Source: Candidatus Gottesmanbacteria bacterium (GTDB lineage: Bacteria > Patescibacteriota > Microgenomatia > UBA10105 > UBA927). Taken from it: 64,000 nt of DNA. Each line of letters starts with the position of its first letter. Within the stretch, counting starts at the first letter, position 1. Both the position numbers and the translations under genes were made by a program. Shown here in pieces: positions 6,692 to 55,615 of this stretch. The DNA lies in the NCBI GenBank assembly GCA_030679255.1, contig JAUXTO010000022.1, forward strand, positions 915 to 64,914, given 5' to 3'. The notes below the pieces were generated by a model. The model saw only the letters and a list, made by a program, of their open reading frames with translations. It searched no databases and was not told the DNA's origin.

Positions 6692-6763
6692 AAATTCTCT
6701 CTCCTCCCTCCTCCTCCTTCTTCCTATTTTCTCCTATTTTCTCCTAGTTTCTCCTAGTTTCTC

Positions 6764-20449: not shown

Positions 20450-20745
20450 AAATGGACTCCACCTATGGAGTCCTCATTTTTCCGTTTCTATCTTCCCGCC
20501 TCTTATCCTCTCCTACCTTCTCCTATCTTCTCCTATCTTCTCCTAATTCCCCTTATTCGCCCGCCTCGCCCCGCGTAGCATTGGCGAAGTGGGGTATCTT
20601 CCCATCTGTATTTTATTGGATTATTGGCTTATTGGATTATTGCTTTCCCCTCCCCCTCCCGTCCCCCTCCCCCACCCACACCTGCTCCACCGGCTTCCGA
20701 TTTATCTCCTTAAAGTCCACAATCCGCTCGGCAATCGCCTCATCA

Positions 20746-34860: not shown

Positions 34861-35866
34861 TCAGCCATTTTTGCGCGTCCATAGCGGCCATACAACCCAT
34901 ACCGGCGGCTACCACAGCTTGGCGATATCGGGAATCGACACAATCTCCTCCAGCAAACACCCCCTCAACTGAGGTTGCCGTCTGCACCAATGTGTTAGAG
35001 TTCTCACTTTCGACTTTTGACTTTTGACTTTTGACTATCTTGATATATCCCTTGGCATCCATGTCGAGAAAACCTTTCAAGAACTCTGTACTCGGTTTGT
35101 GTCCAATCGCCAAAAACACCCCATCCGTCTTCACGTCTTCCAGTACCCCCGTCTTATTGTTTTTCAGTCTCACCCCGCTCACCACGTTCTCCCCGAGTAT
35201 TTCTTCCACGGTTTTGTTGAGTAAAAAGGAAATCTTCGGATTTTTCCGCGCCCGGTCGAGCATGATGGCCGACGCCCGGAACTCCTCGCGCCGATGAACA
35301 ATCGTAACGTGGCTCGCAAAGGTCGTGAGAAACGTGGCCTCTTCCATCGCCGTATCCCCACCGCCGATCACAACGACATCTTTCCCGCGGAAGAAAAATC
35401 CGTCACACGTGGCACACGCCGAGACTCCCTTGCCCATGAGCTTTTGCTCCGAAGGAAGTCCCAAGTACTGGGCTTGCGCCCCCGTCGCCACAATCACCGC
35501 CCTCCCCTGATATGACTCACTTTGTCCTTTCACATCAAAATATTTTTCATTGTCTATTGGCATATTGGTAGTATTGGTAGTATTTGGCTTGGTAGTATTT
35601 GATATTGGTAGTATTTGTATATTGGATATTACATCGCTTACGGCGCTTGCGCCGAAGCGTGTTGCCTGCTTTTTCATTTCTTCCATCAAAGCCGGGCCCT
35701 TGATGCCGCCCGCAAATCCGGGAAAATTGTCGACATCCGTCGTGGTCGTGAGTTGTCCGCCGGGCGCAATGCCTGCCAGAACAAGCGTTTTCAAAAAAGC
35801 TCTCGAAGTATAGAGAGCCGCAGTGTATCCTGCCGGCCCGGAGCCAATGATGATGACATCATACAT
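34844..35866 (-). CDS. trxB: Thioredoxin-disulfide reductase
   Basis: GSGPAGYTAA, CATCDGFFF, GGGDTAMEEA; contains two in-frame repeat inserts (NTTKPNTTNTTN and KSQKSKV). Confidence 0.9.
   Translation of the reverse strand: MYDVIIIGSGPAGYTAALYTSRAFLKTLVLAGIAPGGQLTTTTDVDNFPGFAGGIKGPALMEEMKKQATRFGASAVSDVISNIQILPISNTTKPNTTNTTNMPIDNEKYFDVKGQSESYQGRAVIVATGAQAQYLGLPSEQKLMGKGVSACATCDGFFFRGKDVVVIGGGDTAMEEATFLTTFASHVTIVHRREEFRASAIMLDRARKNPKISFLLNKTVEEILGENVVSGVRLKNNKTGVLEDVKTDGVFLAIGHKPSTEFLKGFLDMDAKGYIKIVKSQKSKVESENSNTLVQTATSVEGVFAGGDCVDSRYRQAVVAAGMGCMAAMDAQKWLNEHHG
35564..35626. repeat. TTGGTAGTATT repeat array inserted in frame within trxB (encodes SNTTKPNTTNTTN)
   Basis: attggtagtattggtagtatttggcttggtagtatttgatattggtagtatttg lies inside the trxB ORF. 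Confidence 0.8.
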
Positions 35867-37855: not shown

Positions 37856-38557
37856 TCATTCCATCGTCTTCTCCGGCCCCTGGTCGCGGTGATAATCGAT
37901 GAACCGCTCAATTCTTCCCGCGTCAAAACTGTCAAACGTATCGATATAATTCCACGCAGTAAGAGCTATCGTCGTTTCTAACTGAGGTCTCGGAACCACC
38001 GCGAGTTTCCAGAGTTTTTTCTTATTGGCGAGTTCCGTAAGACTTTCTACCAACGTCTTGCACCCTTCACTCCCATTCACGGCGCTCCCGGTGGCAATAG
38101 TGGGATCTTTAAAATCTGCCGACGGACTGCCAGATTCTTCATGCGCAAAGACTTTTAGACTTTTGACTTTCCCGCCTGCAACGCTTTGCGTAGCATTGCG
38201 GGCAGGCGACTTTTGACTTTTTAAGTGCACATTACAGTTATAATTGATAATCACATATCCATGCTCGAGCGCATGGAGGAGCTCCCCCTCACTTTGCGGC
38301 GAAGTAAATACTCCCCCCCTCACCCACGTCGCAAGATGCGATCCGCTCGTCGGTGGATTACTATTGTATTTAAAATCAGCAACCGCCTGTGGCGACACAT
38401 GCTCTCTCCCTTGATCAGCCATCTTCGTCCCCGGCACCGGCCGGGTCACCGTCCACCCAATCCATCCAAGGATTCCAACAATCACAATACCGATCCCCAC
38501 TTTCCACCACATAATATAGCGAGTATACCATATGGTGTATAATAACAATCTCATCAT
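37856..38557 (-). CDS. DUF3105-like membrane-anchored protein
   Basis: N-terminal TM; PPTSGSHL motif; contains the in-frame repeat insert KSPARNATQSVAGGKVKSLKV. Confidence 0.55.
   Translation of the reverse strand: MMRLLLYTIWYTRYIMWWKVGIGIVIVGILGWIGWTVTRPVPGTKMADQGREHVSPQAVADFKYNSNPPTSGSHLATWVRGGVFTSPQSEGELLHALEHGYVIINYNCNVHLKSQKSPARNATQSVAGGKVKSLKVFAHEESGSPSADFKDPTIATGSAVNGSEGCKTLVESLTELANKKKLWKLAVVPRPQLETTIALTAWNYIDTFDSFDAGRIERFIDYHRDQGPEKTME
38150..38225. repeat. GACTTTTGAC-flanked element with a GC-rich palindromic core, in frame in the DUF3105 gene
   Basis: gacttttagacttttgactttcccgcctgcaacgctttgcgtagcattgcgggcaggcgacttttgacttttt; homologous copy at 53385-53470 in the PHP gene; core-less copy at 35010-35045 in trxB. 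Confidence 0.75.
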
Positions 38558-38610: not shown

Positions 38611-39033
38611 ATGCGTATCTTTTTCGCCGGTCCACTGACTGATCTCAAAAATCCGGAGGCTACCAAAGTCTTCTATCTCAAGCTTGCGGGCGTGGCGACA
38701 TCAAATAAATTTCAATGGTTCTGGGCTTTCTTAAACGGCACGGATCCGATCAAAAATCCCGAAGTACCTGCAAATGTGGTGTACGAGACGGATCTCGAGG
38801 AACTCGCCAAAAGCGACCTGATGGTCATTTACCTCGGGGAGCCCTCAACCGGCACCGGACAGGAAATTGAGTATGCCAAGGAGCACAATATTCCGGCATA
38901 TCTCCTGTATGAAAAAGGGACGCGGATCACCCGCATGGTCCTGGGAAGCCCTAATATTAAAGGGACAATTGAGTTTACCTCTGAGTCCGACGCCCTCGCG
39001 CAACTGGACACTCTTCTCAAATCACTTTCTTAA
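38611..39033 (+). CDS. Hypothetical protein, possibly nucleoside 2-deoxyribosyltransferase-like
   Basis: MRIFFAGPL start; weak fold-level guess only. Confidence 0.4.
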   Translation: MRIFFAGPLTDLKNPEATKVFYLKLAGVATSNKFQWFWAFLNGTDPIKNPEVPANVVYETDLEELAKSDLMVIYLGEPSTGTGQEIEYAKEHNIPAYLLYEKGTRITRMVLGSPNIKGTIEFTSESDALAQLDTLLKSLS

Positions 39034-39083
39034 CTCCCTCATTCCCAAACAATCTCTCCCCCACTTTCCGACTTTATAGACTT

Positions 39084-39863
39084 TTAGAGGTATAACGCCA
39101 CCGTCATATTCCAAAACACATGAACGAGGATGGGGGCCAGAAGCGACTTCGTGTTGAAGTAAAGCAAGCTGTTAGCCATCCCCAGGATGAAATCCGTGAG
39201 AAAGAAAAGCACAAGCATCGTGCCCTGCAGATGGAGTGATGTCAACAGAATCGGAACATGCAGCAGCATAAACAACACCGTTGAGAGAAGCGACGCATAC
39301 GGAAGACTTTTTGTTTTTTCCATGATCCGGCCAAAAAGAAAGCCACGGTTGAGGATCTCTTCGCTTATCGCCGTTGCGACACTGAGCACAAGTAAGATAA
39401 CCATTCCGTACTGCTCAAACGCAGCAATCGGATTAATCTGAATTTTACCGTATTTTATAGCATTAGCCGCAATTCCTTCGAGCGCAAAAACAAACCCGAA
39501 TCCGAGTCCCACATAGAGATTCATGAAAAGATTTTTGGTCGTAAACCCAAGGCTTTCGATCGTCCGTTTTTCTTTGTGGTAGACGTACCAAAGGACCGGC
39601 CCGAGAAACACCAGGGGTTTGGCGATAAATTCATCTGCCCACTCCGGCAACTTCAAAAAATACCGGTACAGGCTCCAAGCGAGAAGCGTCCATGCCCACA
39701 CCTGATAGATGGGCTCGAGTGTCACCGTGGTCACTTTGCTTTTTTTCTTTTCTTTCATAATCCTACGATATCCTCTTTCTCCCACATTGACAAGAGAGCG
39801 GATTTTGATTTCTTCATACCCATTCGACCCATGAGACACATAAGACTCATTTTTCTCATACAT
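39084..39863 (-). CDS. CPBP-family intramembrane metalloprotease (CAAX protease-like)
   Basis: Multi-TM; motif SEEILNRGFLFG (EExxxR). Confidence 0.7.
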   Translation of the reverse strand: MYEKNESYVSHGSNGYEEIKIRSLVNVGERGYRRIMKEKKKSKVTTVTLEPIYQVWAWTLLAWSLYRYFLKLPEWADEFIAKPLVFLGPVLWYVYHKEKRTIESLGFTTKNLFMNLYVGLGFGFVFALEGIAANAIKYGKIQINPIAAFEQYGMVILLVLSVATAISEEILNRGFLFGRIMEKTKSLPYASLLSTVLFMLLHVPILLTSLHLQGTMLVLFFLTDFILGMANSLLYFNTKSLLAPILVHVFWNMTVALYL

Positions 39864-39870
39864 CCCATGC

Positions 39871-40332
39871 TTATCGGATAAAAAGATATGTCTCGAGAAT
39901 AAATATGATCACCAATACCACCAGCACCCACCGCTGCTGGGATATGCTCGGCACGCCCGCCACCATCCCATACCAACTATTCAAGTTACCCGTGAGCTGC
40001 AACTCCCCGATCTGCCAGAGGAGCAGGGAAAGATAGAGGGACAGGACGAGTCCCGCCCCCAGAAAACTTCCGGAAGAGGTTACGACAAAAAAGCTCACAA
40101 CGGCGTAACCTGCCATAAAAAGCACACTACGAAACGGCGAAGGAGTGAGGGCAAAAAACACTTCCGCCCCGTCGAGGAAATACACGCCTAATATTGCCCC
40201 GCCGAAGTAGAGGAACGCCTGCGGAGGCCAGACAATCTTCCATTTGAGGATCCCCACTCCCAACGCATACCCCACGGATACGGCGAGAAACAGGACTGGC
40301 TTCTTTTTAATAATCTCGATCACTTTATCCAT
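39871..40332 (-). CDS. Hypothetical multi-pass membrane protein
   Basis: Hydrophobic helices; start trimmed to the internal Met to avoid overlap with the acylphosphatase gene. Confidence 0.45.
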   Translation of the reverse strand: MDKVIEIIKKKPVLFLAVSVGYALGVGILKWKIVWPPQAFLYFGGAILGVYFLDGAEVFFALTPSPFRSVLFMAGYAVVSFFVVTSSGSFLGAGLVLSLYLSLLLWQIGELQLTGNLNSWYGMVAGVPSISQQRWVLVVLVIIFILETYLFIR

Positions 40333-40369
40333 AGACTTTATGGCTTTTGACTCTTGAATTTCAACTAAC

Positions 40370-40663
40370 TTAGTATACAACTTCAAACCCCATAAATTCA
40401 CCGGTCGCTTTTTCCCACTCGACCTGTATCTTTTCCACAAATGCAACCTCCGGCCCTTTGTGACACGCTCCAATCAAATCTTCAAGATCTTTCTTCTCCC
40501 CTTCCGCCACCACCTCTACCGCCCCATCCTCCCGATTTTTCACCCACCCCGTAATGGACTTTTCCTGTTTATCCCGAGTCTTTCCGAGGGAAGCCTGGTC
40601 GACCCATGCCCGGTACCCCACCCCCTGCACATCACCAGAAATTATCAGATGCACACGTTTCAT
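40370..40663 (-). CDS. acyP: Acylphosphatase
   Basis: VQGVGYRAW ... GWVKNREDGAVE. Confidence 0.8.
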   Translation of the reverse strand: MKRVHLIISGDVQGVGYRAWVDQASLGKTRDKQEKSITGWVKNREDGAVEVVAEGEKKDLEDLIGACHKGPEVAFVEKIQVEWEKATGEFMGFEVVY

Positions 40664-40799
40664 AGTTCTAGTATACATACCCTTACTCCCTCCTAATTTC
40701 TCATAACTTCTCTTAACCTCTCCTATCCCTTCTCTTTCTGTATGCTCTCATAAACAGCCCGTTGCTTTGATGTGGATTGACGATCTACAATTAATTTAC

Positions 40800-41516
40800 A
40801 TGGACGAATCATCTCCGACTATTCCCCCTCTTCCCCCTGATCCTTCTATTCCCTCTCTTCAATTCATCACCCCTCCCGTCCCCCACCGATCTTATCGCAT
40901 CTGGATTCTCGGCGGACTATCAATCCTCTTCCTCGGCATCCTCGTGGGTTTCATAGGCGCCAAGGTTCCCAGTCCATCTACTAAACAATCTGTCGTTCTC
41001 CCGACTTCTATCCTGACCCCGACCCCGTCTCTCGCCCAAGGAGCTGATATTTTCGCAGGGTGGAAAACATTTACAACCAATTGCAATGTTAGTTTCAAAT
41101 ATCCAAACGATTGGAATGCAAAAGAATTTTTCCTTGTAAAAAATGATGGTGATTGCGGCTATCTGACTGCGCCTGGCTATACACAAGGATTAGACACAAG
41201 AAAAGGATTGTATATCGCCGTTTCAAAAATTCTTCTTGGAAACGTCTCCAATAACATTGCCATCAATTCAATAGACGACTACATAAGGTCCATAAAAGCT
41301 ATCTCGGATCCACCAGCGCGCATAACAAATCTAATAAACAAATCATTACAAAATTATCAAGGAAAACAATTTGACATGAGTTTGGCCGAATCTCAAACAA
41401 TATTTGTTTTTGCAAAAGATACGTATCTCTACACAGTAGCTTGGCCAAGCCAATTCTCTGGACGAGAAATGTCCCAAATAGACCAAATCCTCTCCACGTT
41501 TAAATTTAACAAATAG
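40800..41516 (+). CDS. Family C paralog: proline-rich N-terminus, one TM anchor, variable ectodomain, conserved C-terminal motif FDQILSTFKF
   Basis: MDESSPTIPPLPPDPSIP ... WILGGLSILFLGILVGF ... IDQILSTFKFNK. Confidence 0.7.
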   Translation: MDESSPTIPPLPPDPSIPSLQFITPPVPHRSYRIWILGGLSILFLGILVGFIGAKVPSPSTKQSVVLPTSILTPTPSLAQGADIFAGWKTFTTNCNVSFKYPNDWNAKEFFLVKNDGDCGYLTAPGYTQGLDTRKGLYIAVSKILLGNVSNNIAINSIDDYIRSIKAISDPPARITNLINKSLQNYQGKQFDMSLAESQTIFVFAKDTYLYTVAWPSQFSGREMSQIDQILSTFKFNK

Positions 41517-41571
41517 TCTCCCATTCTCTTGCGCGATCCATTGCGCGATTATTGCGTGATATAATAAGGGT

Positions 41572-42618
41572 ATGTTTCTACCAACCTACCGTATTTCCGA
41601 TCAGATTCTTGCATGGCTTTCTGAAATTGCCCAAATCAAAGCTATGGTGGACCATGCCACATTACTCCCTGCTCGCCAAGCGCTACTTCGCCGCGCTACA
41701 ACGATCAAGATGACCCATTCCTCCACCTCCATAGAGGGAAATTCCCTGAAAGAATATCAGGTGCTTCAGATCGCAGACGGCAAGAGGGTGCAGGCTCAAT
41801 CCAAGGATATCCGGGAGGTCCAAAACTATCTCAGCGCGCTTGAACTTATAGATACTCTCTCTCAAAATTCTACGTTCACCCAGGGAGACATCCTCGCGAT
41901 CCACAGTCGCGTGATCACAGGGTTAGTAGACACCGCAAAAACCGGCACGTTGCGCCGTGGACCGGTGTATGTCGTCAATACATTACCGTCAGGAAGGGAA
42001 CAATTAGTCTATACACCGCCTACGTGGCAGAAAGTAGCTGTCCTTTTAGACGATCTCACCGCGTGGTGCAACGAATCTGCCGCAGTCCATCCTATTATTC
42101 GAGCGGGCATCCTTCATTATCAATTTGAATCGATCCATCCCTTCACCGATGGCAACGGTAGGGTGGGGAGACTTCTCACCCTCCTTCATCTCTACCAATC
42201 TGCCTGGAATTTTAAAAAGGTTCTGGTGTTAGAAGATTTTTATAATGAAAATCGGAAAAATTATTACGAGGCTCTCCAAACAGGTACAACATTTGCAAAA
42301 CGAGATGGCGCAGATATCACCCCATGGCTCACCTACTTTATCAAAGGATTTTGGGAGGAAGCACTTCGCGTAAAAGAACAAATACTGAGCTTACAGGTAG
42401 GCGCAGGGGATATTACATCGCGCAGACTCACGACAGACGAACTCAGGATGATCGATTTCCTCGTGACGATGGGAAAAATTACGAGCGCTGATGTGGTAGA
42501 CATACTCCAGGTGCCCAAGCGTACGGCACAAGCGAAACTGAAAAAGTTAGAGCTCTATCGTATCGTTAAAAAAATATCTGCTGGTCCGAGTACTTACTAC
42601 TGCCTTGCGCCCACATAA
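41572..42618 (+). CDS. Fic/DOC-family protein
   Basis: Fic motif HPFTDGNGRVGRLL. Confidence 0.85.
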   Translation: MFLPTYRISDQILAWLSEIAQIKAMVDHATLLPARQALLRRATTIKMTHSSTSIEGNSLKEYQVLQIADGKRVQAQSKDIREVQNYLSALELIDTLSQNSTFTQGDILAIHSRVITGLVDTAKTGTLRRGPVYVVNTLPSGREQLVYTPPTWQKVAVLLDDLTAWCNESAAVHPIIRAGILHYQFESIHPFTDGNGRVGRLLTLLHLYQSAWNFKKVLVLEDFYNENRKNYYEALQTGTTFAKRDGADITPWLTYFIKGFWEEALRVKEQILSLQVGAGDITSRRLTTDELRMIDFLVTMGKITSADVVDILQVPKRTAQAKLKKLELYRIVKKISAGPSTYYCLAPT

Positions 42619-42732
42619 ACGGTACCGCTCCTCATTCTCTCCTCATTTCTCTTGCCTTCCCGTAGTTCTCTCATACTCTCCCGCATTCATCCCGTTGCTT
42701 TGATGAGGGATGACGATCTACAATAAATTTAC

Positions 42733-43503
42733 ATGGACGAATCATCTCCAACTCCTCCCCCTCTTCCCTCTGATCCTTCTATTCCTTTACCTCAAATCGT
42801 CCCCCCTCCACCAACAGTCCCCCATCCATCCAAACTTCTCTGGTTTCTCGCCGGCCTTGCCATCCTCATTCTCGGCATCCTCGTGGGATACGCGGCCACC
42901 AACGTCCTGAGTCAATCAAAAAAGCCATCAGATGACGCAACCACCTCATCACAAAAATCTTCCACCAATTTTTCCCAACTCACCTCTTCCCCTACCCCCT
43001 TACCCGACGGAGCTTCAGCGAAGGAGGGTGCCCCAACACTCGCAACAGGAGCGGATCTGTTTGCACAGTGGATAACATATACCAATGACAAACATAAATT
43101 TTCTTTTACATACCCTCAAGAATTATCTTATTTAAATGATTATTTGGACAAAAACACACAAATATATGGAAATTTATTACTACAAAATTTTGACGGATCA
43201 AAACCGCGCAAGGAATTGACCTCAGATTTTCAAATGGGTATCTGGTTAAACAAGGACGATGGAACACCTCTGGCAAATCACCCGAAACAATGGGAAAAAG
43301 AATTGGGAAAATTACCAATTGAATACATAACCGTGGGCGGAATCAATGCGATCAAAGGGTTTAGTGAACAAAAATATCAAGCGGTCCCAACTGTTTGGTT
43401 TTCAAAAAATGATGATTCCTACATGATACAACTCTCCCATCCCAACTCAACAAACAAAATATGGTTTGACCAAATCCTCTCCACATTTAAATTCACAGAG
43501 TAG
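42733..43503 (+). CDS. Family C paralog (membrane-anchored variable surface protein)
   Basis: Same N-terminal PPLPSDPSIP...TM and C-terminal FDQILSTFKFTE; 5' flank almost identical to the 40800 gene. Confidence 0.7.
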   Translation: MDESSPTPPPLPSDPSIPLPQIVPPPPTVPHPSKLLWFLAGLAILILGILVGYAATNVLSQSKKPSDDATTSSQKSSTNFSQLTSSPTPLPDGASAKEGAPTLATGADLFAQWITYTNDKHKFSFTYPQELSYLNDYLDKNTQIYGNLLLQNFDGSKPRKELTSDFQMGIWLNKDDGTPLANHPKQWEKELGKLPIEYITVGGINAIKGFSEQKYQAVPTVWFSKNDDSYMIQLSHPNSTNKIWFDQILSTFKFTE

Positions 43504-43622
43504 ACCAACTCTGCGCGATACATTGCGCGATTATTGCGTAGTAATGTTTGTAACCGTTTAAGAGTTACCACAAGGTTGCATCAGTTGAATGACGAAGGAG
43601 ACTAACGTACAATACGCTCACC

Positions 43623-43907
43623 ATGGATACGAAAGCACTCAACTATCGCGTCATCATCGAGCCAGACGTGTATTCCGGGTCAGGAAAACCGTGCTATTTA
43701 GCGTACGCACCGGCCCTTGACGTGGCGGACAATGGGGATAGCATCGAAAAGGCAATCACAAACATCACTGAGGCAATCCGTTGCCGGATAGATGCTCTCA
43801 TAGCTGATGGAGAGCCGGTTCCTTCACCGGAGAATCCTAGCGACACCGTGGTTGTGACCACAGCAAAAGTTTTGGTTCCCAAAGATTATCCTTTTGCATT
43901 TGCATGA
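43623..43907 (+). CDS. hicB: HicB-family antitoxin
   Basis: 94 aa; UPF0150/HicB-like. Confidence 0.7.
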   Translation: MDTKALNYRVIIEPDVYSGSGKPCYLAYAPALDVADNGDSIEKAITNITEAIRCRIDALIADGEPVPSPENPSDTVVVTTAKVLVPKDYPFAFA

Positions 43908-44128
43908 GTAAATTAGGCAACGTTCGCCCCCGCGATGTTATCCGTGCGTTTAAGAAGCATGGATTTATAGAGGTCAAAACCGTCGGAAGCCACGTAGACC
44001 TTCGCCATCCGGCCGGATACCGTACTACTGTCCCGTTTCACGCCAAAACACTCGGAAAAGGACTTCTTGCCAAGATTCTCAAGCAATCCCACCTTACTAT
44101 CGATCAATTACGAAATCTCATAAAATAA
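43904..44128 (+). CDS. hicA: HicA-family mRNA interferase toxin
   Basis: 74 aa; GSHVDLRHP motif; 4-nt overlap with hicB. Confidence 0.7.
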   Translation: MSKLGNVRPRDVIRAFKKHGFIEVKTVGSHVDLRHPAGYRTTVPFHAKTLGKGLLAKILKQSHLTIDQLRNLIK

Positions 44129-44209
44129 ACTAACATACAACAGCGCGCGACTCTTGCGTGGTATTTATTTTGTTGATTGATGAAGTTCAAGAGTTTACTA
44201 TAAATCTAC

Positions 44210-45112
44210 ATGGACTCCTCCACTGTCACTCCTCCCCCTCTTCCCTCTGATCCTTCTATCTCTTTGCCTCAAATCGTCCCTCCTCCACTACCCGTCCCCC
44301 ATCCATCCAAACTCAAATGGCTTCTCGGAGGACTATCAATCCTCATCCTCGGCATCCTCGCGGGATACGCGGCCACCAACGTCCTGAGTCAATCAAAAAA
44401 GCAAGTCGCCACCCCACCAAAAAACTCTCCTTCCACATTCTCCACCCTCTCCTCTCCTACTCCCTTGCCCGCCGGCTTGTCCGCCGAAGCCTTGGCGAAG
44501 GTGGAGGCTTCAGCGAAGGGAGATGATCCAACTTCGAATTGGAAAAGGTATCTGGTAAAAACAGTAAATCTTGAATTCAAATTACCACCAACGTTTAATT
44601 CCTACGGAGACCTAATGGAAAAAATTGAACCCGGGGAAAAAGGTACGCTACTGTGTATAACATTTCCAACGAGCTCGTCGTATCATTTTATTAACCCTAT
44701 TTTTGCCGGAGGAACAGGATGCCAAATACATAAATTCGGTCTCGGCACCATATCCGTAGACTACGAAGCGGGCAGAGGTGGAAGTTTTACTGACGTACTC
44801 GGTTATGTCATAAAAAACGGAAAATACTATGGACGTCAAGTAGGCAACAGTGTGTTCGAACTTCCTCCATTATTGACCACCCCGATGAATAATTCTAACG
44901 GTATGCAAATACTAAAAATCATAGGTAAAAACGAAACATCCGGAGAATGGCGGGGCCCCGTCGGAGGCACGCCCGGAGATGGAAAAATTGGAGCTATCCT
45001 CAATACGAAAAACCCTCTCTACCCCGGCATCGCGATAGAAATGGAATTAAATAGTACTCTTACTGAGGGCCTTTTTGACCAAATCCTCTCCACGTTTCAA
45101 TTCACACAGTAG
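44210..45112 (+). CDS. Family C paralog
   Basis: MDSSTVTPPPLPSDPSISLPQIVPPP...TM...FDQILSTFQFTQ. Confidence 0.7.
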   Translation: MDSSTVTPPPLPSDPSISLPQIVPPPLPVPHPSKLKWLLGGLSILILGILAGYAATNVLSQSKKQVATPPKNSPSTFSTLSSPTPLPAGLSAEALAKVEASAKGDDPTSNWKRYLVKTVNLEFKLPPTFNSYGDLMEKIEPGEKGTLLCITFPTSSSYHFINPIFAGGTGCQIHKFGLGTISVDYEAGRGGSFTDVLGYVIKNGKYYGRQVGNSVFELPPLLTTPMNNSNGMQILKIIGKNETSGEWRGPVGGTPGDGKIGAILNTKNPLYPGIAIEMELNSTLTEGLFDQILSTFQFTQ

Positions 45113-45266
45113 ACTCCCGAGCTCTCCTACTTCCTCCTACTCTCTCCTATCCACTCCTAATTACCCTTATCCTCCCGTACATTCCCATACTCCCGCAGTA
45201 CCCCCTCGCGGCCCACATCGTGCGTAGGATTGATTACTTCCCATCAACCATTTACTATGTCTCTAC

Positions 45267-45995
45267 ATGGACACCATTCCCATTTCTCCTCCCCCTCTTC
45301 CCTCTGATCCTTCTATTCCTTCACCTCAAATCGTCCCCCCTCCACCAACAGTCCACCATCCCTCCAAACTTCTCTGGTTTCTCGCCGGTCTTACGATTCT
45401 CATCCTCGGCATCCTCGCGGGATACTTTGCCACCAACGTCCTGAGTCAATCAAAAAAGCCATCAGATGACGCAACCACCCCATCACAAAAATCTTCCACC
45501 AATTTTTCCCAACTCGCCGTTTCCCCGACCTCAACAATTGACCCCACGGCAAATTGGAAAACATATACAAATCCTAATTATCCCTTCAGTTTTAAATATC
45601 CATCAAATTACACAGTGGAAGAAAATTCAGGATATATAAGTATCCTCAGTCCTCTACTTCCAGTGACTGATAAGGGGTACGAATTAAAAAATGGTGAACT
45701 AAAGATAGAAATTTATATACAGTCATCACCAGTAAATGATTCGCTGAAAAAATATGTATTAGAAAAGAAGACTCAAACAAAGGAAAACTTACCGGAATCA
45801 AAAATAATTAACGAAACCGAAGTTACAATCGATGGTATAAAAACTATTTTATTAAAATGGGAAGCCGTGGGAACAGGAGAAACAAGATATGTAATCAAGA
45901 ACGGATATAGAATTGGAATTACCAAATATCCTCTTGAAACTTCAAGACAATCAGAATTTGACCAAATCCTCTCCACGTTTACATTCACCGACTAA
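45267..45995 (+). CDS. Family C paralog
   Basis: First ~250 nt ~90% identical to the 42733 gene; ends EFDQILSTFTFTD. Confidence 0.7.
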   Translation: MDTIPISPPPLPSDPSIPSPQIVPPPPTVHHPSKLLWFLAGLTILILGILAGYFATNVLSQSKKPSDDATTPSQKSSTNFSQLAVSPTSTIDPTANWKTYTNPNYPFSFKYPSNYTVEENSGYISILSPLLPVTDKGYELKNGELKIEIYIQSSPVNDSLKKYVLEKKTQTKENLPESKIINETEVTIDGIKTILLKWEAVGTGETRYVIKNGYRIGITKYPLETSRQSEFDQILSTFTFTD

Positions 45996-46000
45996 CGACG

Positions 46001-46753
46001 TTACCGTAACACATAGTCGAGTTGATCGATAATCACTGTTCTAAAATCCTGCAAAAATTGGCTCAAAAATTCTTTGGTCTCGACCAGTGGATAGAGATCA
46101 TCATAAACAAATTGTGGATCTACCAATTCTACTTTGGCTTTCACCAAGTCCCGTATTTCCGGGAGAGACTTTTTTTGCAACAGCGCCGTCAACCGTTTGA
46201 CATTGGGTTTGAGGGTATAGCCGGTCTTAGCCGAAAGTTGGAGGAGCCAGTACATATCGTAGATATCCCGCCCCTTAAATGGGATTGTTTGAAATTTTCC
46301 TTTAAAAAAGTTCCTGCTCAGAAACGCTACAATTTTATTGGCAAAAAGCGTGGGCAGATCATACGCAGTAACAAAAAATTGACGATTGCCGGCAGTGATC
46401 AAATTTTTTTGGACGTGATATTCTGTTGTTGTAACCTTGGAAAAATCACACCGTACGAAAATATTGTCAGGAAATTTTACAAACACCGTCGCGTTATTGC
46501 CGGATATCTTGGTACCTGTGGATAAACATTTTCCCAAATTATTGGCAAACATCGTGATATCTACGGAGATACCCATAGGGATATCAAAATCCAAATCTTC
46601 AGACAAGCGGTTTAACCCATACGCTTTTCGCAGACAGGTTCCCCCGGTAAAAATGAGTTTATTGTAAACGCTATCATGGTAAACAAAGCTGAGTATTTCA
46701 TCTTGCCACCGTTCTTTTACCAAATTTCTCTGATAGGTATTAGTGTCGCTCAT
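46001..46753 (-). CDS. AbiEii-like nucleotidyltransferase toxin
   Basis: IFTGGTCLRKAYGLNRLSEDLDFD. Confidence 0.75.
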   Translation of the reverse strand: MSDTNTYQRNLVKERWQDEILSFVYHDSVYNKLIFTGGTCLRKAYGLNRLSEDLDFDIPMGISVDITMFANNLGKCLSTGTKISGNNATVFVKFPDNIFVRCDFSKVTTTEYHVQKNLITAGNRQFFVTAYDLPTLFANKIVAFLSRNFFKGKFQTIPFKGRDIYDMYWLLQLSAKTGYTLKPNVKRLTALLQKKSLPEIRDLVKAKVELVDPQFVYDDLYPLVETKEFLSQFLQDFRTVIIDQLDYVLR

Positions 46754-47378
46754 AGAGGTATTGTAGTACGTTTCGCATCTTTTTTGACCTTGATTTTGTC
46801 ACGATCTCTTTAAATTCTTGCATATCTTTGGGTGTAAATACTCCCCAATTGAACCGTGAGTCAAATAAAAATTCCCGTGCAACCCTGCCAGATTCAAGCG
46901 GAGTAAGATAGATCAGATCAAACAGCGCTTTGGCCGGACTGGCCATTTGATATGTCAGCGTTCCAAAGAATTTTTTGGTATATCCCCAAAACAACCCGGA
47001 CTTAATATTCCGGTATCGGAAGCTCATGAGTGGACTTTGAAACTTCCTGGTTTTTTTGGTCGTAATATACGTGATGGTATAGACACTTTCGGCCAATATT
47101 CCGTAAAGCGCCAACGCATACTCCAAAGAGATATAGCTGTCCCGCACCATCTCGCCACCGATATATCTCGCCATTTCTTCCGGCTCGGATGTTTTTTGGT
47201 ACAGCGTTTTGTTGAGGTATATTCCGGGCTTGATTGTGTCGAGCATTCCCATCCGTCTGAGCGACGTGATCCGATAGTCTGTCGTGCGTCTATTGTCCCC
47301 CAATAGGAGCTCCAGATTCTTCCTGGTAAAAAACGGAGCTGTGCTTTCTGAGATCAATTTCTTATAATCTGTTTCCAT
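46740..47378 (-). CDS. AbiEi-like antitoxin
   Basis: ~212 aa; overlaps the AbiEii start. Confidence 0.6.
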   Translation of the reverse strand: METDYKKLISESTAPFFTRKNLELLLGDNRRTTDYRITSLRRMGMLDTIKPGIYLNKTLYQKTSEPEEMARYIGGEMVRDSYISLEYALALYGILAESVYTITYITTKKTRKFQSPLMSFRYRNIKSGLFWGYTKKFFGTLTYQMASPAKALFDLIYLTPLESGRVAREFLFDSRFNWGVFTPKDMQEFKEIVTKSRSKKMRNVLQYLYERH

Positions 47379-47486
47379 ATGCACATAATTATATGTGCAA
47401 CAAGAAATAAAGTCAAGTGGTGGTTATTACATACGTTCGTATCTTCCTCTTGATCGATAAAATAGAAAGACTTATCATAATTCTAC

Positions 47487-48839
47487 ATGGACGAATCATC
47501 TCCAACTCCTCCCCCTCTTCCCCCCTCGCCCGCCGCCTTGTCCGCCGAAGCCTTAGCGAAGGTGGAAGCCTTAGCGAAGGAGGGTGATCCTTCTATCTCT
47601 TTGCCTCAAATCGTCCCTCCTCCACTACCCGTCCCCCATCCATCCAAACTCAAATGGCTTCTCGGCGGTCTCACGATCCTCATCCTCGGCATTCTCATGG
47701 GATACGCGGCCACCAACGTCCTTAATCAATCAAAGAAACCCCCAAATGACGCAGCCACTCCATCCCAAAAATCTTCCACCAATTTTTCCCAACTCACCTC
47801 TTCCCCTACCTCTACTATTGAATTCAACCAAGAGCTAAAAACATATAAAAACCCACGCGGGCTCAATTTTTCCTACCCAAATGGCTGGCAAATTTTGGAT
47901 CGGACGCTTAACCCGGGAGAAAACCTAAAAGAAAAGGGCAGGTATGATATTTCAGCTGATAAGGATCCAGTAGAGATTGTCGACGTGGTAAAAAATGATT
48001 GGACACTCCGCGTTACAATAAAAGACGCGTATAGTCCACTTGGAGGTTTCGGGCCAATTCAAGATCTTCACGAATATAAAGTTTTTCCCATCCTCGGTAG
48101 AAATGCTCTCAGAACTAAAATTGAAGATGGATATATGCCTGCCATATCTGATCATCCAGAACCCTATCCCTTTCCAATTTTGTTCCAAAGGCATCCTGGG
48201 GAAACCGACCCTGTTTATTGGCGTACTCCGGATACAGAGGGAAATTTTGTTCCATTGTTTTCTACAAATGATCCAAGGGACAAAATTAATATAGATGCAG
48301 TTATCTATTCAAAATTCCTTACAAAAAATAATATCAATAACCGCAAGATTGAGCCATCTATAATTCAAGAAATAGACCAAATCCTCTCCACGTTTCAATT
48401 TCTCGATGCTCCAAGTCCCACCACCACGACGCGCATACAAGCCACGCCAATCGAGTCAAACGGCGTGGATCTCAAAGGCATCCGCTACACCCTCCCTACG
48501 GGTTGGGGAGCGACGCTTAACGCCGACAATCTCCATCTCGCGCCTAAATCCGGAGGTGGATACTTATATATTGAAGTATTCAATTACCCCGGTACCACGG
48601 GGCGGAGAGACTACTACTGCCAGCTGCGTAAATACTGTATCCCCGAGACTGAATTTACAGAAACAACCATTGGAAATATATCAGGATACCGAGCAACGAG
48701 GCTTGATAATAGCGGCGGCGGAGAGGAATATTTTGGGGCCAAAGGCAACAAATTCTATATCATCGGTACATACTCTCCCCCCTCTCCCAACGACTTTGAC
48801 AATAATTACAAATCCGTCTTGAGTTCGCTCATCTTCTGA
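47487..48839 (+). CDS. Family C paralog with an extra C-terminal domain after an internal IDQILSTFQF motif
   Basis: 5' ~170 nt near-identical to the 44210 gene; the conserved C-terminal motif sits mid-protein (~residue 300), followed by ~140 aa more. Confidence 0.7.
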   Translation: MDESSPTPPPLPPSPAALSAEALAKVEALAKEGDPSISLPQIVPPPLPVPHPSKLKWLLGGLTILILGILMGYAATNVLNQSKKPPNDAATPSQKSSTNFSQLTSSPTSTIEFNQELKTYKNPRGLNFSYPNGWQILDRTLNPGENLKEKGRYDISADKDPVEIVDVVKNDWTLRVTIKDAYSPLGGFGPIQDLHEYKVFPILGRNALRTKIEDGYMPAISDHPEPYPFPILFQRHPGETDPVYWRTPDTEGNFVPLFSTNDPRDKINIDAVIYSKFLTKNNINNRKIEPSIIQEIDQILSTFQFLDAPSPTTTTRIQATPIESNGVDLKGIRYTLPTGWGATLNADNLHLAPKSGGGYLYIEVFNYPGTTGRRDYYCQLRKYCIPETEFTETTIGNISGYRATRLDNSGGGEEYFGAKGNKFYIIGTYSPPSPNDFDNNYKSVLSSLIF

Positions 48840-48968
48840 CATCTTCCATCGTACGTCTTGAGTCCTACGTCTTATGTCCTTCTCAATCCGTCCTCTCCTC
48901 CCTCATTTTTTAATTGGATTTTACATTCATTTGTAGATTTGTAGATTCGTAGATTTCCTCATTTGTTT

Positions 48969-49229
48969 TTACTCCTCCCCCTTCCGGAGCTTCCCCATCT
49001 TCCACATAAAGAGTTTGGGCTTGCTGGTGGCATTAGCATCCTTGACGAATGAGTATGCTTTTTCGAGGATCGCCCGCGGCACGGTTTTGGCGAGGCGTAT
49101 GTAGAGCGATTTATGTTTGTAATCCCCGAGATTTTCTGCAAGGAATATCCCATATGACTGAAACTCCCGCGAGATATATTTGTCTTCGATGGGATTAAAC
49201 TTCTTGAGGATATCGCTTATGGTCTGCAT
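48969..49229 (-). CDS. Hypothetical protein (86 aa)
   Basis: ORF with an upstream TAGGAGA-type leader. Confidence 0.45.
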   Translation of the reverse strand: MQTISDILKKFNPIEDKYISREFQSYGIFLAENLGDYKHKSLYIRLAKTVPRAILEKAYSFVKDANATSKPKLFMWKMGKLRKGEE

Positions 49230-49288
49230 AGCAGTGTTTTCTCTTATCCTCTCCTATTTTCTCCTAATTTCTCCTAACGCGTGATGAA

Positions 49289-49879
49289 TCAATTAAACCG
49301 ATTCATCGCTTTATCAATCCCATCGATTAGTCCGATCCGAACCGCTTCTGTTCCGTGTTTTACGAGGTGCTTGAGGCTTCCTGCTTCGTCACGACGAAAC
49401 CGGGACAGCACAAACTGGATGACGGACCGATGATGAAGATTTTTATCCCGCGCATCGGGAGATCCTGCTTTCCCCCGCCCGATCCCCATACGGAAACGGA
49501 TAAACGCATCAGTCTTGATTGCCAACGCAATGGACTCTATCCCATGATGCCCACCGGTCCCGCCTTTTTCGCGTATGCGGATTTTTCCCAAAGGAAGATC
49601 GATGTCATCGTGGATGACCCAGAGGTCTGCGGGGGCGAGTTTATAAAAACGAATAAGCGCCCCCACGGCAAGTCCGCTGTTATTCATGAAGGTGAGTGGC
49701 TTGGCAAGGATCACGTCGCCCACGCGGGCTACCATTGCCTTGCGGGCACTGTCTTCTTTCCAGGAAGCATCGATGCCTCCCAACTCATGGGCGAGCTTGT
49801 CCACGATCATAAACCCGATATTATGCCGGGTGCTTTCATATTCTCGCCCAGGATTACCAAGACCAACAATCAATTTCAT
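49289..49879 (-). CDS. pth: Peptidyl-tRNA hydrolase
   Basis: MKLIVGLGNPGREYESTRHNIGFM. The start is taken at this internal Met; the longer upstream extension is unlikely. Confidence 0.85.
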   Translation of the reverse strand: MKLIVGLGNPGREYESTRHNIGFMIVDKLAHELGGIDASWKEDSARKAMVARVGDVILAKPLTFMNNSGLAVGALIRFYKLAPADLWVIHDDIDLPLGKIRIREKGGTGGHHGIESIALAIKTDAFIRFRMGIGRGKAGSPDARDKNLHHRSVIQFVLSRFRRDEAGSLKHLVKHGTEAVRIGLIDGIDKAMNRFN

Positions 49880-51023: not shown

Positions 51024-53672
51024 TTACAACAAACTCATTTGTTCTTTCGACGCGTCCACGAGGGGTTTATCTTCATCGTCGCGCCAGAGTTTCACGACAC
51101 CAAATACTCCGTCATACCCGGGATCGATGACGAGATCCCCACGTCGGACTTTATCGATACCTTCAGCTATCCTTGCGCCCGCAACCTTCGTAATTTCCTC
51201 TATAGTCGCGTTCAGAAGCACATTAAACTCCCCACCCAATGCATCTGTCAGCGTCATGTACGGCCCCTGTACCTTGGGGCTTGCAACCGGTGATCCAATA
51301 CACTCATGAATTATCTCTTGTAAGGGTACGAGCATCACAAACGGCGGCCTGTTTGGAAATTTCTTGCTTCCCGTCATCCGAATTGTTTTCTTATCTGACA
51401 GCTGACCCGCTTCGCCGGAGCTTGAGCGAGGCGAGTAGTTGACAGCTGATAGCTTGAGTGATTCCTCGCTCCTCCCTGCCAGCTGTTCAACTCTCTGCAC
51501 GACACCCTGGACAAGCGGTTTCCCACACACAGGACACGTCGTCCCCTTCTTTGCCGTCTCCTCGGGACCCCACCGTATCCCGCACGCCCGGTGCCCCGAC
51601 CAATGATACTTCCCCTCTTCGGGATAAAATTCTATCGTATAAGCAATCTTAGCTTTCAGCTTTCTGTCTTCAGTCTTCAGACTTGAAGAACGTATCGCAT
51701 CATAAATCATCTGATAGCTGAGAGCTGACGACTGACGACTAGTCTCAAATACCGTCGCTTCCCTCCCCAACTTCGGCCCCGAGTGCGCATCGGAAAAAGA
51801 CAGAATCGATCGATGATCAAGTTCCTTGATGCGCCAATTCATCGCCGGATTACTCGATAACCCCGTCTCTATCGCATAAATATGCTTTGCATACGGCCCA
51901 AATGCCTCATCCAGACTCTCAAACCCACCCTTCTCGCCATAGACCGAGAACCACGGAGTCCAGCAATTATGAACAACCGCATACTCTGCGATATATGAAT
52001 GATCCTTTTCCACCTCCAGGTTATAGACATCGCCTTCATACACTTTTTTTGTTATTTCCTTTATCGGCAAATAGACGTTCATTTTGTCGATCCATCCATG
52101 CCTACGGTCCAACGTTGTTTGCGACTTCGGCATTTCTTTTTTGAGATCAAACGCATCCTCAAAGAAAGAAAGATTTGACATTGAATAGAGATCATAGTTA
52201 AATTTTATCACCCGGTTGCCAATTTTATGATTACCTATTCTTTGATGCACCGCTTCATTATTTATGATAATAGATGGAATAATACCCAGACGAAGACACA
52301 CAGCTTTCATCTGATGTACCAACATTCGCGACGTCGTATATCCACGATCTCCCCTATACCACCCGCGGAGACATTCTGCTTGTGCAGCAGCATCTGCCAT
52401 TAGGAGCACAGATGGAATCATTTTATTGCTTGCGGAATGTTTTTGTCCTGGTGTGTAGCATTGGTGAGCGAACCACTGGGCATGGAGTTTGGAATAATAA
52501 ATAATTTCCACACCTTTTGTCTGTTTCCGACGATACAGTCGATTGTAATCAATGCCAAGTACGTTTTTCACTAATTGAACGACATCATCGATATATTCCT
52601 GTTCCTTTTCAGAAAAACAAAAGGAAAAACTATTGTCGCCGTCCGTGGACCCCTCCGCAATATAATACCCGACCAATCTACCCAAATCCGACGTTATGGG
52701 AATTCTGTTTTTCAGCACTCTCCCCCGTGTTCCCCCGGCGCGAATTAAACTTTCGTGCCCTCCATTTACATCCAAATACATATCTGTTTCGCGCTTCATC
52801 GTTTGCGAACGTGGATATACGAGCATATCACCTACGGTTAAATCTTCTGCCTTAACCCATGCTGGTTTATACTTCAAACATTCTTTTCTTTTGCAAAGAG
52901 AAAGGTGCGATCTGCTGGGTCGGCATATATCGCCGGTACTCGAACACTTCTTAATTGTTTGGATAGCATAATATGGATGCTCCGGCGTCGTCACAAGCCC
53001 GGGACGGAAGTACCAAGGTTGTACATGAAGAACAAATCCTTTATATGAACGTTTTTTTACTTCTGTAACGCTATGCAGCTCACCGGTGTGTGTTAACACA
53101 CCATCACCTTCTACAATTTTGTCGATACGTTTCGGCACAAAATTATCTCCCAATATCATCGAATCAGGGAGAAGACAATGCGCCGGTATGATCAACGCTT
53201 TAGGCTCTATAGCCAACACGAGTTCGGCTATATGGATGCAGGAAAGCCCCACGATAGGCCGACCGTCGCTCATGAGATTGCAGCCGCGCTTCGTCATCTC
53301 CTGACTAATTTTCCGGGCAGACGCAATGGTCGGCACCCAGATGAGTGTATGCACCCGCCGGACTTTCCCGCCCTGGGAATAAATCGAAGAAACTTCGGTA
53401 GCAAGCATAAAATGAGGACTTTTGACTTTCTTGCCCGCCGTAGCTTTAGCGGAGGTGGGTGACTTTTGACTTTTGACTTGTAATAACCCATTCCCCAACT
53501 CCACCAGATCCCTCTCTATCTCCCGAAACCACATCGGGTGCATCCAGTCGCCTGTCGCGACCAATCCTATCCCCTTCCTCCTCGCCCACGCGGCAATATT
53601 GGGGATAGTCATAGCCGGCGACACCGCACGGGAAAAATGGGAGTGGAGCTGTAAGTCGGCAATAATCTGCAT
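51024..53672 (-). CDS. PHP-domain protein (EndoQ/TIGR00375-like?) with C-terminal zinc ribbon, interrupted by a LAGLIDADG intein
   Basis: N-terminal ADLQLHSHFS PHP motif. Intein Cys1 ...AH|CLLPDS..., LAGLIDADG blocks LVGYYIAEGSTDGDN and LRGWYRGDRGY, C-terminal VVHN|C. Extein resumes CWTPWF...SFSDAHS; later CPVCGKPL. Confidence 0.7.
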   Translation of the reverse strand: MQIIADLQLHSHFSRAVSPAMTIPNIAAWARRKGIGLVATGDWMHPMWFREIERDLVELGNGLLQVKSQKSPTSAKATAGKKVKSPHFMLATEVSSIYSQGGKVRRVHTLIWVPTIASARKISQEMTKRGCNLMSDGRPIVGLSCIHIAELVLAIEPKALIIPAHCLLPDSMILGDNFVPKRIDKIVEGDGVLTHTGELHSVTEVKKRSYKGFVLHVQPWYFRPGLVTTPEHPYYAIQTIKKCSSTGDICRPSRSHLSLCKRKECLKYKPAWVKAEDLTVGDMLVYPRSQTMKRETDMYLDVNGGHESLIRAGGTRGRVLKNRIPITSDLGRLVGYYIAEGSTDGDNSFSFCFSEKEQEYIDDVVQLVKNVLGIDYNRLYRRKQTKGVEIIYYSKLHAQWFAHQCYTPGQKHSASNKMIPSVLLMADAAAQAECLRGWYRGDRGYTTSRMLVHQMKAVCLRLGIIPSIIINNEAVHQRIGNHKIGNRVIKFNYDLYSMSNLSFFEDAFDLKKEMPKSQTTLDRRHGWIDKMNVYLPIKEITKKVYEGDVYNLEVEKDHSYIAEYAVVHNCWTPWFSVYGEKGGFESLDEAFGPYAKHIYAIETGLSSNPAMNWRIKELDHRSILSFSDAHSGPKLGREATVFETSRQSSALSYQMIYDAIRSSSLKTEDRKLKAKIAYTIEFYPEEGKYHWSGHRACGIRWGPEETAKKGTTCPVCGKPLVQGVVQRVEQLAGRSEESLKLSAVNYSPRSSSGEAGQLSDKKTIRMTGSKKFPNRPPFVMLVPLQEIIHECIGSPVASPKVQGPYMTLTDALGGEFNVLLNATIEEITKVAGARIAEGIDKVRRGDLVIDPGYDGVFGVVKLWRDDEDKPLVDASKEQMSLL
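51966..53177 (-). mobile_element. Intein (404 aa) with a LAGLIDADG homing-endonuclease domain inside the PHP-domain gene
   Basis: Bounded by Cys (residue 166) and His-Asn (568-569), followed by a Cys +1; contains two LAGLIDADG motifs. Confidence 0.7.
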
Positions 53673-54741: not shown

Positions 54742-55563
54742 TTATTGAAATAATTTTACTATGGACTTGAGATGCAACATGATATCCGCAACGACCTTTT
54801 CATTCCATGTTACATTATTTTTATTATAAAGTTGCCCGCCCATGATAAACCCCGGAACTCCGTCCGGTGATTTGTTGGTGAGTAATACAGATATTGCGGA
54901 GTAGATGTACGCTCCCATTGCGCCAAGCATTCCTTGTTTTCTGTATCGTCTGAGTGAATAGACACAAAGCACCTCGCGTAATACGGATAGGGGTACATGT
55001 TTTTTATACAACCGGGTAGAAAAATCGTGGTCCTCGCCAAACGCTTTCTGTTCGTCATATCCGCCTACCCGGTCAAATATATCTTTTCTTACCACAACAA
55101 ACGGCCCCGGCGACCACGGGCGCTTGACGAGAATATAACCCTCAATGACAATGTTATTGAGGAGTATGAGAATAGCATCTTTGATCTCCTCACTATCGGC
55201 GCGGAACCACGAAGTGAAAAACGGGGCCTTCATGGTATGAATATGATCAATGCACCGCTGGATCAGATACGGCAAGGCGACCGTATCGGCATCGACAAAT
55301 ATATACCACGATCCGTGCGCGTGTTTTGCTCCCAAATTCCGCTGATATGGCAGGCTCGCCTTCTCTCCAACCAGAACCCGCAAGGATGGAAGTTTTTTCT
55401 CAAATGATTTGGCCACTGCCACGGTCTTGTCTTTCGATTTCCCATCGACGACAATCACTTCAAAGTTTTTTTGGGATTGTCCGGCAAGCGACTCCAGAAG
55501 ATGCGGTAAAAACTTTTCTTCATTGAGGGCCGGTATGATGACAGAAAATAAAGGATTCTTCAT
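54742..55563 (-). CDS. Family-2 glycosyltransferase (tandem paralog)
   Basis: FSVIIPALNEEKFL ... VIVVDGKSKDKT ... FVDADT. Confidence 0.8.
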   Translation of the reverse strand: MKNPLFSVIIPALNEEKFLPHLLESLAGQSQKNFEVIVVDGKSKDKTVAVAKSFEKKLPSLRVLVGEKASLPYQRNLGAKHAHGSWYIFVDADTVALPYLIQRCIDHIHTMKAPFFTSWFRADSEEIKDAILILLNNIVIEGYILVKRPWSPGPFVVVRKDIFDRVGGYDEQKAFGEDHDFSTRLYKKHVPLSVLREVLCVYSLRRYRKQGMLGAMGAYIYSAISVLLTNKSPDGVPGFIMGGQLYNKNNVTWNEKVVADIMLHLKSIVKLFQ

Positions 55564-55615
55564 ATTGGTTTATTGGTAGTATTTGAAATTGGTAGTATTG
55601 GTACTATTGGTAGTA

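Follow-up and report, generated by a model that had tools for sequence, protein, structure and literature searches.

Several bacteria carry families of surface proteins in which conserved segments adjoin variable ones. In Helicobacter pylori, the Hop/Bab outer-membrane proteins are expressed paralogs, and recombination in their conserved ends yields chimeras. The Vlp and Vsp lipoproteins of Mycoplasma, which have a conserved 5' untranslated and signal-peptide region and divergent, internally repetitive mature regions, are switched by poly-A tracts in their promoters or by site-specific inversion, and the pilE/pilS, vlsE and msp2 systems of Neisseria, Borrelia and Anaplasma combine one expression site with promoterless partial cassettes, the anchor segments being of very high identity. 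Attachment to host cells is the presumed lifestyle of bacteria of the candidate phyla radiation (CPR, or Patescibacteria), and their surface proteins are almost unknown. In this study we focus on an array of five paralogous genes, G1 to G5 in plus-strand order, located at positions 40800-48839 of a 64-kb stretch of DNA (the window) analysed from a 258-kb contig of a metagenome-assembled genome (MAG) of Candidatus Gottesmanbacteria. The array represents a family of surface-protein paralogs whose conserved ends recombine, and its curious feature is a C-terminal motif with conserved codons. We consider it likely that the five genes form an array of the PsbP_2 family in which the 5' modules are homogenised, old cores are replaced in the manner of cassettes, and the ectodomains are displayed at the surface.

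As in Hop/Bab, the paralogs of the array are full-length, their ends appear homogenised by gene conversion and their middles differ. However, Hop/Bab proteins are outer-membrane beta-barrels, so that both fold and envelope are different; their middles are homologous alleles, whereas those of the array are anciently diverged subfamilies, and their dinucleotide-repeat phase variation is absent here. As in Vlp/Vsp, clustered surface-protein genes share a promoter, a 5' end and an anchor module and differ in their exposed parts, although poly-A switching, inversion and repetitive mature regions were not found in the array. The pilE/pilS, vlsE and msp2 systems also place a variable segment between conserved recombination anchors, but the array consists of five complete genes with promoter-like sites and has no partial cassettes. 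Finally, the immunity proteins Tsi3, TplEi and Tli4 of type VI secretion systems (T6SS) have a PsbP-like fold and an extracytoplasmic place, and occur as arrays in variable regions beside defence genes; unlike them, the proteins of the array show no sequence relationship to these immunity proteins and no cognate toxins, and the PsbP_2 family is spread through housekeeping contexts.

The listing of open reading frames (ORFs) confirms the five complete plus-strand paralogs that an initial annotation of the window had proposed: G1 (40800-41516, 238 aa), G2 (42733-43503, 256 aa), G3 (44210-45112, 300 aa), G4 (45267-45995, 242 aa) and G5 (47487-48839, 450 aa). All five proteins start with MD, have a Pro-rich N-terminus and, after it, a single hydrophobic helix, and carry the motif [FI]DQILSTF(K/Q/T)F. 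G4 matches Pfam PF18933 (PsbP_2) directly, scoring 44.1 bits (E 2.9e-11, profile positions 34-178 of 184) for a gathering cut-off of 27 bits, and is called 'PsbP-related protein' by NCBI. G1, G2 and G5 score 15.2, 12.9 and 21.1 bits, all below the cut-off, and are linked to the family through homologues, of which 9 of 33 (best 9.2e-13), 10 of 23 and 16 of 34 (best 1.4e-10), respectively, match PF18933. G3 alone has no match by sequence, and only 1 of its 27 homologues has one, a weak one. The array is therefore made of five paralogs of the CPR-wide PsbP_2 family, in the PsbP/Mog1/DcrB/DUF1795 superfamily, and not of an undescribed family as was initially thought; PF18933 is catalogued rather than functionally characterised. 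Compared with the Pfam family, four of the five proteins individually fall below the cut-off, and the CPR members differ by a predicted type II membrane anchor, an arrayed arrangement and an almost invariant C-terminal decapeptide. Since the G4 match runs into FDQILSTF and stops four residues into it (residue 234, profile position 178 of 184), the motif is the terminal part of the PF18933 domain and belongs to a known family. The five proteins had no match in NCBIfam or PADLOC, no relative turned up when PDB sequences were searched with the G1-family profile, and nothing relevant was found in the literature on the motif, on PF18933 or on gene conversion of CPR surface proteins.

AlphaFold2 models of G3 and G5 adopt a PsbP/Mog1-type alpha-beta fold, the G3 ectodomain (residues 110-300) being modelled with a predicted local distance difference test score above 90. 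Both models retrieve the same fold matches, namely BT_1490, TplEi, a cyanobacterial PsbP, PNSL1, Tsi3, Mog1, PsbP, LpqN and DcrB, with 6-15% sequence identity. The hydrophobic helix spans residues 36-62 in G3 and 54-80 in G5, in agreement with the Pro-rich N-terminus and single transmembrane (TM) anchor described initially. BLASTP detected no similarity between the cores, and there was no match either when the G2-family and G3-family cores, stripped of their terminal motifs, were compared profile to profile; with sequence comparison negative, the homology of the cores follows from the Pfam links and the fold. The cores that had been called unrelated are thus so by sequence and not by fold, at least for the G3 and G5 models. 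The proteins probably have a Pro-rich cytoplasmic tail and a TM helix in N-in/C-out orientation, that is, a type II anchor, followed by what would be a Ser/Thr/Pro-rich stalk and one PsbP/Mog1-fold ectodomain (two in G5). In PsbP, LpqN, DcrB, the PknH sensor domain and T6SS immunity proteins, the PsbP/Mog1 fold provides a scaffold that binds proteins or lipids. From the modelled fold and this topology we infer that the ectodomains may be binding modules displayed at the surface on a common anchor.

In both models the C-terminal motif accounts for the final part of the last helix and for a short strand of the domain. It had been suggested that the motif could act as a sorting or anchoring signal; its place inside the fold, and its internal position in tandem-domain proteins, speak against this. 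Indeed, the layout of LPXTG or PEP-CTERM signals, with a hydrophobic helix and a basic tail closing the protein, is not found, as the motif is followed by only two residues or by another domain.

The conserved 5' module comprises about 300 nt encoding the promoter, tail, TM helix and stalk, on the plus strand (42688-42996 in G2; about 40755-40990 in G1, 44165-44475 in G3, 45222-45530 in G4 and 47450-47810 in G5). By blastn, the identity of the 5' ends is 93% over 245 nt (88.8% over 286 nt) for G2/G4, 86% over 226 nt for G2/G5 and 82% over 227 nt for G3/G5; in the last pair, one 84-nt sub-tract reaches 81/84. The identity of G1 to the other paralogs is about 70%. The 90-100% identity reported initially holds for G2/G4 and was overstated for G3/G5. 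Over the first ~112 aligned codons, the synonymous divergence (dS) is 0.18 for G2/G4, 0.32 for G2/G5, 0.37 for G2/G3 and 0.41 for G3/G5 (0.18-0.49 among G2-G5, and 0.56-0.70 for G1 versus the rest), whereas that of the cores is saturated, above 1.9 or undefined. Of the 74 residues that are identical in the G2/G4 module, 69 have the same codon in both genes, versus about 25-60% in the cores. The 5' modules, by both measures, are alike at the DNA level beyond what their amino acids would predict.

Orthologues in the nearest genomes provide yardsticks for these values, with dS of 0.54-1.36 for pth, 1.1-1.35 for the second domain of G5 and 0.74-0.77 for the N-terminal module (N-module). The last has a nonsynonymous divergence (dN) of 0.33-0.39 and is among the fastest-evolving parts between species. 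Since this module evolves fast between species, yet the copies of G2-G5 are more alike than any orthologue pair, protein-level selection cannot account for the likeness of the G2-G5 modules, for which a recent homogenisation can account. Moreover, the modules are mosaics of one another. The first 36 nt of G5 are those of G2 (36/36), a 60-nt insert comes next, and the tract after it is the one that resembles G3 (81/84), at a place where G2 resembles G4 (81/84), and thereafter G5 is like G2/G4. A maximum chi-square permutation test is significant for four triplets (p ≤ 0.0005), which upholds for the 5' modules the gene conversion put forward initially. Given a correct assembly, recombination among the 5' modules is real, and the module would have been homogenised repeatedly among the paralogs through short-tract gene conversion.

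The cytoplasmic tail of G5 contains a 60-nt in-frame insert on the plus strand (47523-47582, PSPAALSAEALAKVEALAKE). It falls in a 79-nt repeat (47512-47590) that is 84% identical to the stalk DNA of G3 (44451-44529), and includes an 18-nt tandem duplication (GCCTTAGCGAAGGNGGNN). The corresponding coding element, 'SAEALAK(V)EA(L/S)AKEG' with the 18-nt duplication, is seen at 47523-47582, 44451-44529 and 43012-43037 and, in loci (L numbers) and proteins (P numbers) of other genomes, at 10050-10106 of L061 and in the L007 protein 5980-6708. Its position in the anchor module varies: G5, P0050 and the L007 gene have it in the cytoplasmic tail, G3 and G2 in the extracellular stalk. In its behaviour it resembles a small segment that moves or duplicates within the family.

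The same partition is found elsewhere in CPR, where neighbouring paralogs have N-modules with 62-86% protein identity versus 8-27% for their cores, and where other arrays share a 5' module of 280-340 nt at 81-88% nucleotide identity in front of cores that cannot be aligned. A shared N-module with a divergent core is a general property of the PsbP_2 family.

The cores of G1, G2, G3 and G5 each have an orthologous group elsewhere in CPR. That of G1 counts 224 cluster representatives; the G2 core has orthologues with 50-61% identity in other Microgenomates, where the N-termini differ, and the G3 core has orthologues with 45-71% identity. In G5, the first domain ends with IDQILSTFQF (48372-48401) and resembles P0051 (54% over 164 residues), and the second (48402-48836), which ends with SVLSSLIF, a degenerate equivalent of the motif, recurs with 50-82% identity in over 30 two-domain proteins from other genomes, each time behind a different first domain. 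The mid-gene motif followed by an extra domain was correctly noted in the initial annotation; the local recombination invoked to explain it is not borne out, the two-domain layout being old and widespread. Orthologues of the array cores carry unrelated N-terminal anchors. At L007, for instance, a G3-type core has another N-terminus, and it is the neighbouring gene that bears the module of our window.

Comparison with two related lineages gives a view of the locus over evolutionary time. L001 (GCA_964558385.1) and L061/L062/L065 (from Hainich groundwater) share with the window a collinear stretch of up to 26 kb that is 75-88% identical in nucleotides. Both have a single two-domain gene (P0021, P0050) in the slot that in the window holds an acylphosphatase gene and the 8-kb array, with G1-G5 and three toxin-antitoxin or defence modules. 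In the window, a membrane-protein gene (39871-40333) and an 86-aa gene (48969-49229) lie on either side of the slot. The N-modules of P0021 and P0050 match that of G1 (54-60% protein identity), which is the orthologue of the N-module of the single gene, and their second domains match G5 domain 2 (80-82%), while the cores of G1, G5, P0021 and P0050 show no detectable mutual similarity. In 3 of 3 pairwise comparisons, the nucleotide sequences become homologous again where the motif begins, at its first codon (window 48371/48372). The relatives' cores being unrelated and homology resuming exactly at the motif, the comparison indicates that the core, bounded by N-module and motif, has been replaced as a cassette between two anchors over evolutionary time, in line with the cassette-type organisation proposed initially. 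By parsimony, with L061 as outgroup to the window and L001, the single gene would be ancestral and the array would have grown here, from one two-domain gene to five genes, along with the SoFic, HicAB and AbiE modules. The ectodomain cores are different, old subfamilies, and the 3' block is a segment conserved across the whole family, synonymous sites included.

The DNA encoding the motif deserves separate attention. All five genes contain the conserved coding block reported initially, on the plus strand (41478-41507 in G1, 43465-43494 in G2, 45074-45103 in G3, 45957-45986 in G4 and 48372-48401 in G5), and the pattern GACCAAATCCTCTCCAC(G/A)TTT is matched 5 times in the window versus 0.02 expected. 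When one genome per species was scanned, 259 stretches were seen to encode [FI]DQILSTF[KQ]; the 56 confirmed loci belong to Microgenomates, Parcubacteria, Saccharibacteria, Doudnabacteria and others. Same-strand arrays with 2-6 copies per 12 kb, as well as proteins with two internal copies of the motif, are common elsewhere in CPR. The nucleotide identity of the 3' block is that of the family as a whole across CPR; because it is conserved family-wide, its identity in the window, which had been read as a sign of local gene conversion, is not evidence for it.

Furthermore, the synonymous codons of the motif are conserved across CPR phyla beyond the amino-acid constraint, as seen in 45 further copies (L005-L060, from the protein scan). 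Leu is encoded by CTC/CTT in 42 of 43 copies (34% background in the same ORFs), Ser by TCC in 29 of 43 (12% background) and Ile by ATC in 34 of 44 (20% background), so that ATC CTC TCC is strongly favoured and neither TTA/TTG for Leu nor AGY for Ser occurs; the binomial p values, from 1e-5 to 1e-19, are indicative only, as the copies are not independent. The blocks are more alike within a locus than between loci (19.4 versus 17.7 of 21 nt, p 0.0005). Use of optimal codons at conserved residues was rejected as a cause, since a second conserved motif, WKTYTN/FSFKYP, has ordinary T-ending codons and no such bias. An embedded promoter (TTGACC-N16-TAAATT, 43466-43493 and 45958-45985) was rejected as well, the most biased codons sitting in its spacer. 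The bias might instead come from an anchor for recombination, from an embedded signal or from an element acting at the mRNA level. The first could be extended into a proposal that the lineage-specific 5' module and the 21-33-nt block (GACCAAATCCTCTCCAC...) with its codons conserved across CPR together serve as anchors for swaps of ectodomain cassettes among paralogs and genomes, synonymous conservation being kept for exchangeability, at rates that might give strain-level surface variation; we regard this as unlikely.

Each gene is preceded by a promoter-like site. In G1 it lies at 40762-40791 on the plus strand and consists of TTGCTT, an 18-nt spacer and TACAAT, with the ATG 8 nt past the -10 element and no Shine-Dalgarno sequence. 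The same -35/-10-like layout, 8 nt before the ATG, is found upstream of all five genes (47450-47478 in G5), and neither the sequences nor the upstream alignment revealed a Shine-Dalgarno sequence ahead of G1-G5. Such sites are not enriched in the window over shuffled sequence (22 versus 16.0 ± 4.3), and it is on the positional conservation in the upstream alignment, not on scan enrichment, that the promoter claim is based. The five genes are probably independent transcription units with leaderless mRNAs. As initially noted, the 5' untranslated and upstream regions of G1 and G2 are alike (87% identity over 122 nt), and so are their 3' flanks, in which a 28-nt plus-strand block located 3' of the G1 stop codon (41530-41557) has a second copy 3' of the G2 stop codon (43512-43539) with 27/28 identity. 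The TTGCGCGAT block of the 3' flank is not a repeat found genome-wide, and neither a significant structure nor a terminator was predicted when the five 3' flanks were folded as RNA. An Rfam scan of 38-51 kb gave as its sole match a sub-threshold fluoride riboswitch within the G2 coding region, which was judged a chance match.

The initial reading of the locus as a programmed antigenic or contingency system, in which conversion between the conserved 5' and 3' blocks would often reshuffle the surface cores within a population, would explain why ends are conserved and middles variable, why recombination is demonstrable among the 5' modules, why cores are replaced between related genomes within the same blocks, and why a 3' block of 21-33 nt is conserved at the nucleotide level. 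However, the five copies are all full-length, each with its own promoter-like site, and the silent cassettes expected of such a system were searched for in vain, the 64-kb window containing no extra, truncated or partial copy of the 5' and 3' blocks. No recombinase or reverse-transcriptase domain was detected in the long ORFs located within about 12 kb of the array (about 29 to 57 kb); no template/variable repeat pair of the diversity-generating retroelement type was seen in 40000-49500; and the inverted repeats that an invertible or shufflon-type switch would use are reduced to three weak 19-22-nt pairs, all within coding regions. The genes contain no homopolymer or simple-sequence tracts, and no JGI metagenome contig matched the TM-coding block in a scan for the exact pattern. 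The 5' identity of 82-93% is below the near-identity expected of ongoing conversion, and the cores of G1, G2, G3 and G5, 40-71% conserved with distant orthologues, evolve under purifying selection and are not hypervariable. These results do not support a contingency or antigenic-variation system, which we hold to be very improbable. Ordinary divergence after tandem duplication, with ends kept alike by stronger purifying selection and no recombination, would agree with the family-wide conservation of the motif as a structural element and with the compositional constraint on TM segments. It is already contradicted by the synonymous rates, the orthologue yardsticks and the mosaic test: the dS of the 5' module is 4-10 times below that of the cores and also below that of nearest-species orthologues, although the N-module is among the fastest parts between species; same-core orthologues elsewhere bear unrelated N-termini; and the mosaic tracts are significant. 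We find this explanation barely credible.

The main functional rival is an array of extracytoplasmic immunity proteins in a defence island, where orphan immunity genes would neutralise envelope toxins of competitors or of the host, by analogy with Tsi3, TplEi and Tli4. Such a role would fit the interleaving with SoFic, HicAB and AbiE, the variability of the slot between related genomes, another array (L002) interleaved with BrnT/CopG, and the presence of Tsi3 and TplEi among the fold matches. The likeness is at the level of fold only, however, and PsbP, Mog1, LpqN and DcrB are matched equally well; PADLOC does not recognise the five proteins, and no toxin genes lie nearby. A survey of 148 ORFs beside family genes in CPR found mostly housekeeping and cell-wall enzymes, no constant partner, and no toxin or secretion partner. 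We consider immunity proteins quite unlikely. The reading that we favour, a PsbP_2 array with homogenised anchors and surface-displayed ectodomains replaced cassette-like, has its own weak points. The function is derived from fold and topology, and the conservation of the motif codons is left unexplained by the model. The direction of the expansion, as opposed to two independent collapses, depends on parsimony with two comparator lineages, and in a MAG the order of an array with 300-nt modules 82-93% identical, as well as the mosaic tracts, could in principle reflect assembly.

The modules lying amid the paralogs agree with those named initially. Between G1 and G2, a plus-strand gene (41572-42618) encodes a Fic-domain protein of the SoFic defence type (Pfam Fic 4.6e-20; PADLOC SoFic 8.6e-62). 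Domain searches of the ORFs identify a HicB antitoxin (43623-43907) and a HicA toxin (43904-44128) between G2 and G3, both on the plus strand, and, together with PADLOC, an AbiEii toxin (46001-46753) and an AbiEi antitoxin (46740-47384) between G4 and G5, on the minus strand. The acylphosphatase gene of the slot (40370-40678) has no counterpart in either relative, L001 or L061. In L061, two genes of the 23S_rRNA_IVP/bAvd four-helix-bundle family flank the slot (7911-8270 and 11688-12002); none is present at the window positions of about 39033-39084 and 49230-49289. Together with Fic and HicBA, the array makes up the window's sole long plus-strand block; nearly all other long genes are on the minus strand, and the GC skew is negative over the whole window (1-64000).

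Other repeated elements were observed in the window. Its intergenic spacers are dense in short tandem repeats with a period of 7-10 (CTCCTAnnnn, TATTGGTAG, ATTGGATT, CTGACGA and GACTTTATA), for example at 6711-6773, 20500-20545, 35555-35625, 40680-40738, 45114-45192, 49237-49289 and 55563-55617. Several of these types recur at many spacers and in L001 and L061, and are genome-wide rather than specific to the array. Two unrelated minus-strand genes contain similar in-frame insertions (KSQKSP...AGGKVKS), at 38125-38200 in a DUF3105 gene (37856-38557), where the insertion divides the Pfam match into two, and at 53410-53480 in an intein-bearing gene (51024-53672). These insertions are built from (AAAGTCA)n, a GC-rich imperfect palindrome and AAAGTCAAAAGTC, and resemble a small repeat element entering coding sequence in frame, like the Rickettsia palindromic elements. 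The 882-aa product of the latter gene has an intein with a LAGLIDADG domain. In L061 (13202-15874, 17981-20833), the adjoining ATP-dependent DNA ligase is also intein-bearing; the ligase of the window (55616-57379, 587 aa) has no intein.

Taken as a locus type, the array is a hotspot that gathers toxin-antitoxin and defence genes. It is also a clean case of module-specific concerted evolution in very small genomes, with an anchor homogenised within the genome and ectodomains drawn from an old shared repertoire. The conserved synonymous codons of the motif are a small testable puzzle that may point to a function at the level of the nucleic acid. Moreover, the PsbP_2 family is abundant, arrayed, modular and probably surface-anchored, which makes it a candidate set for functions of the envelope and of host contact in CPR bacteria.

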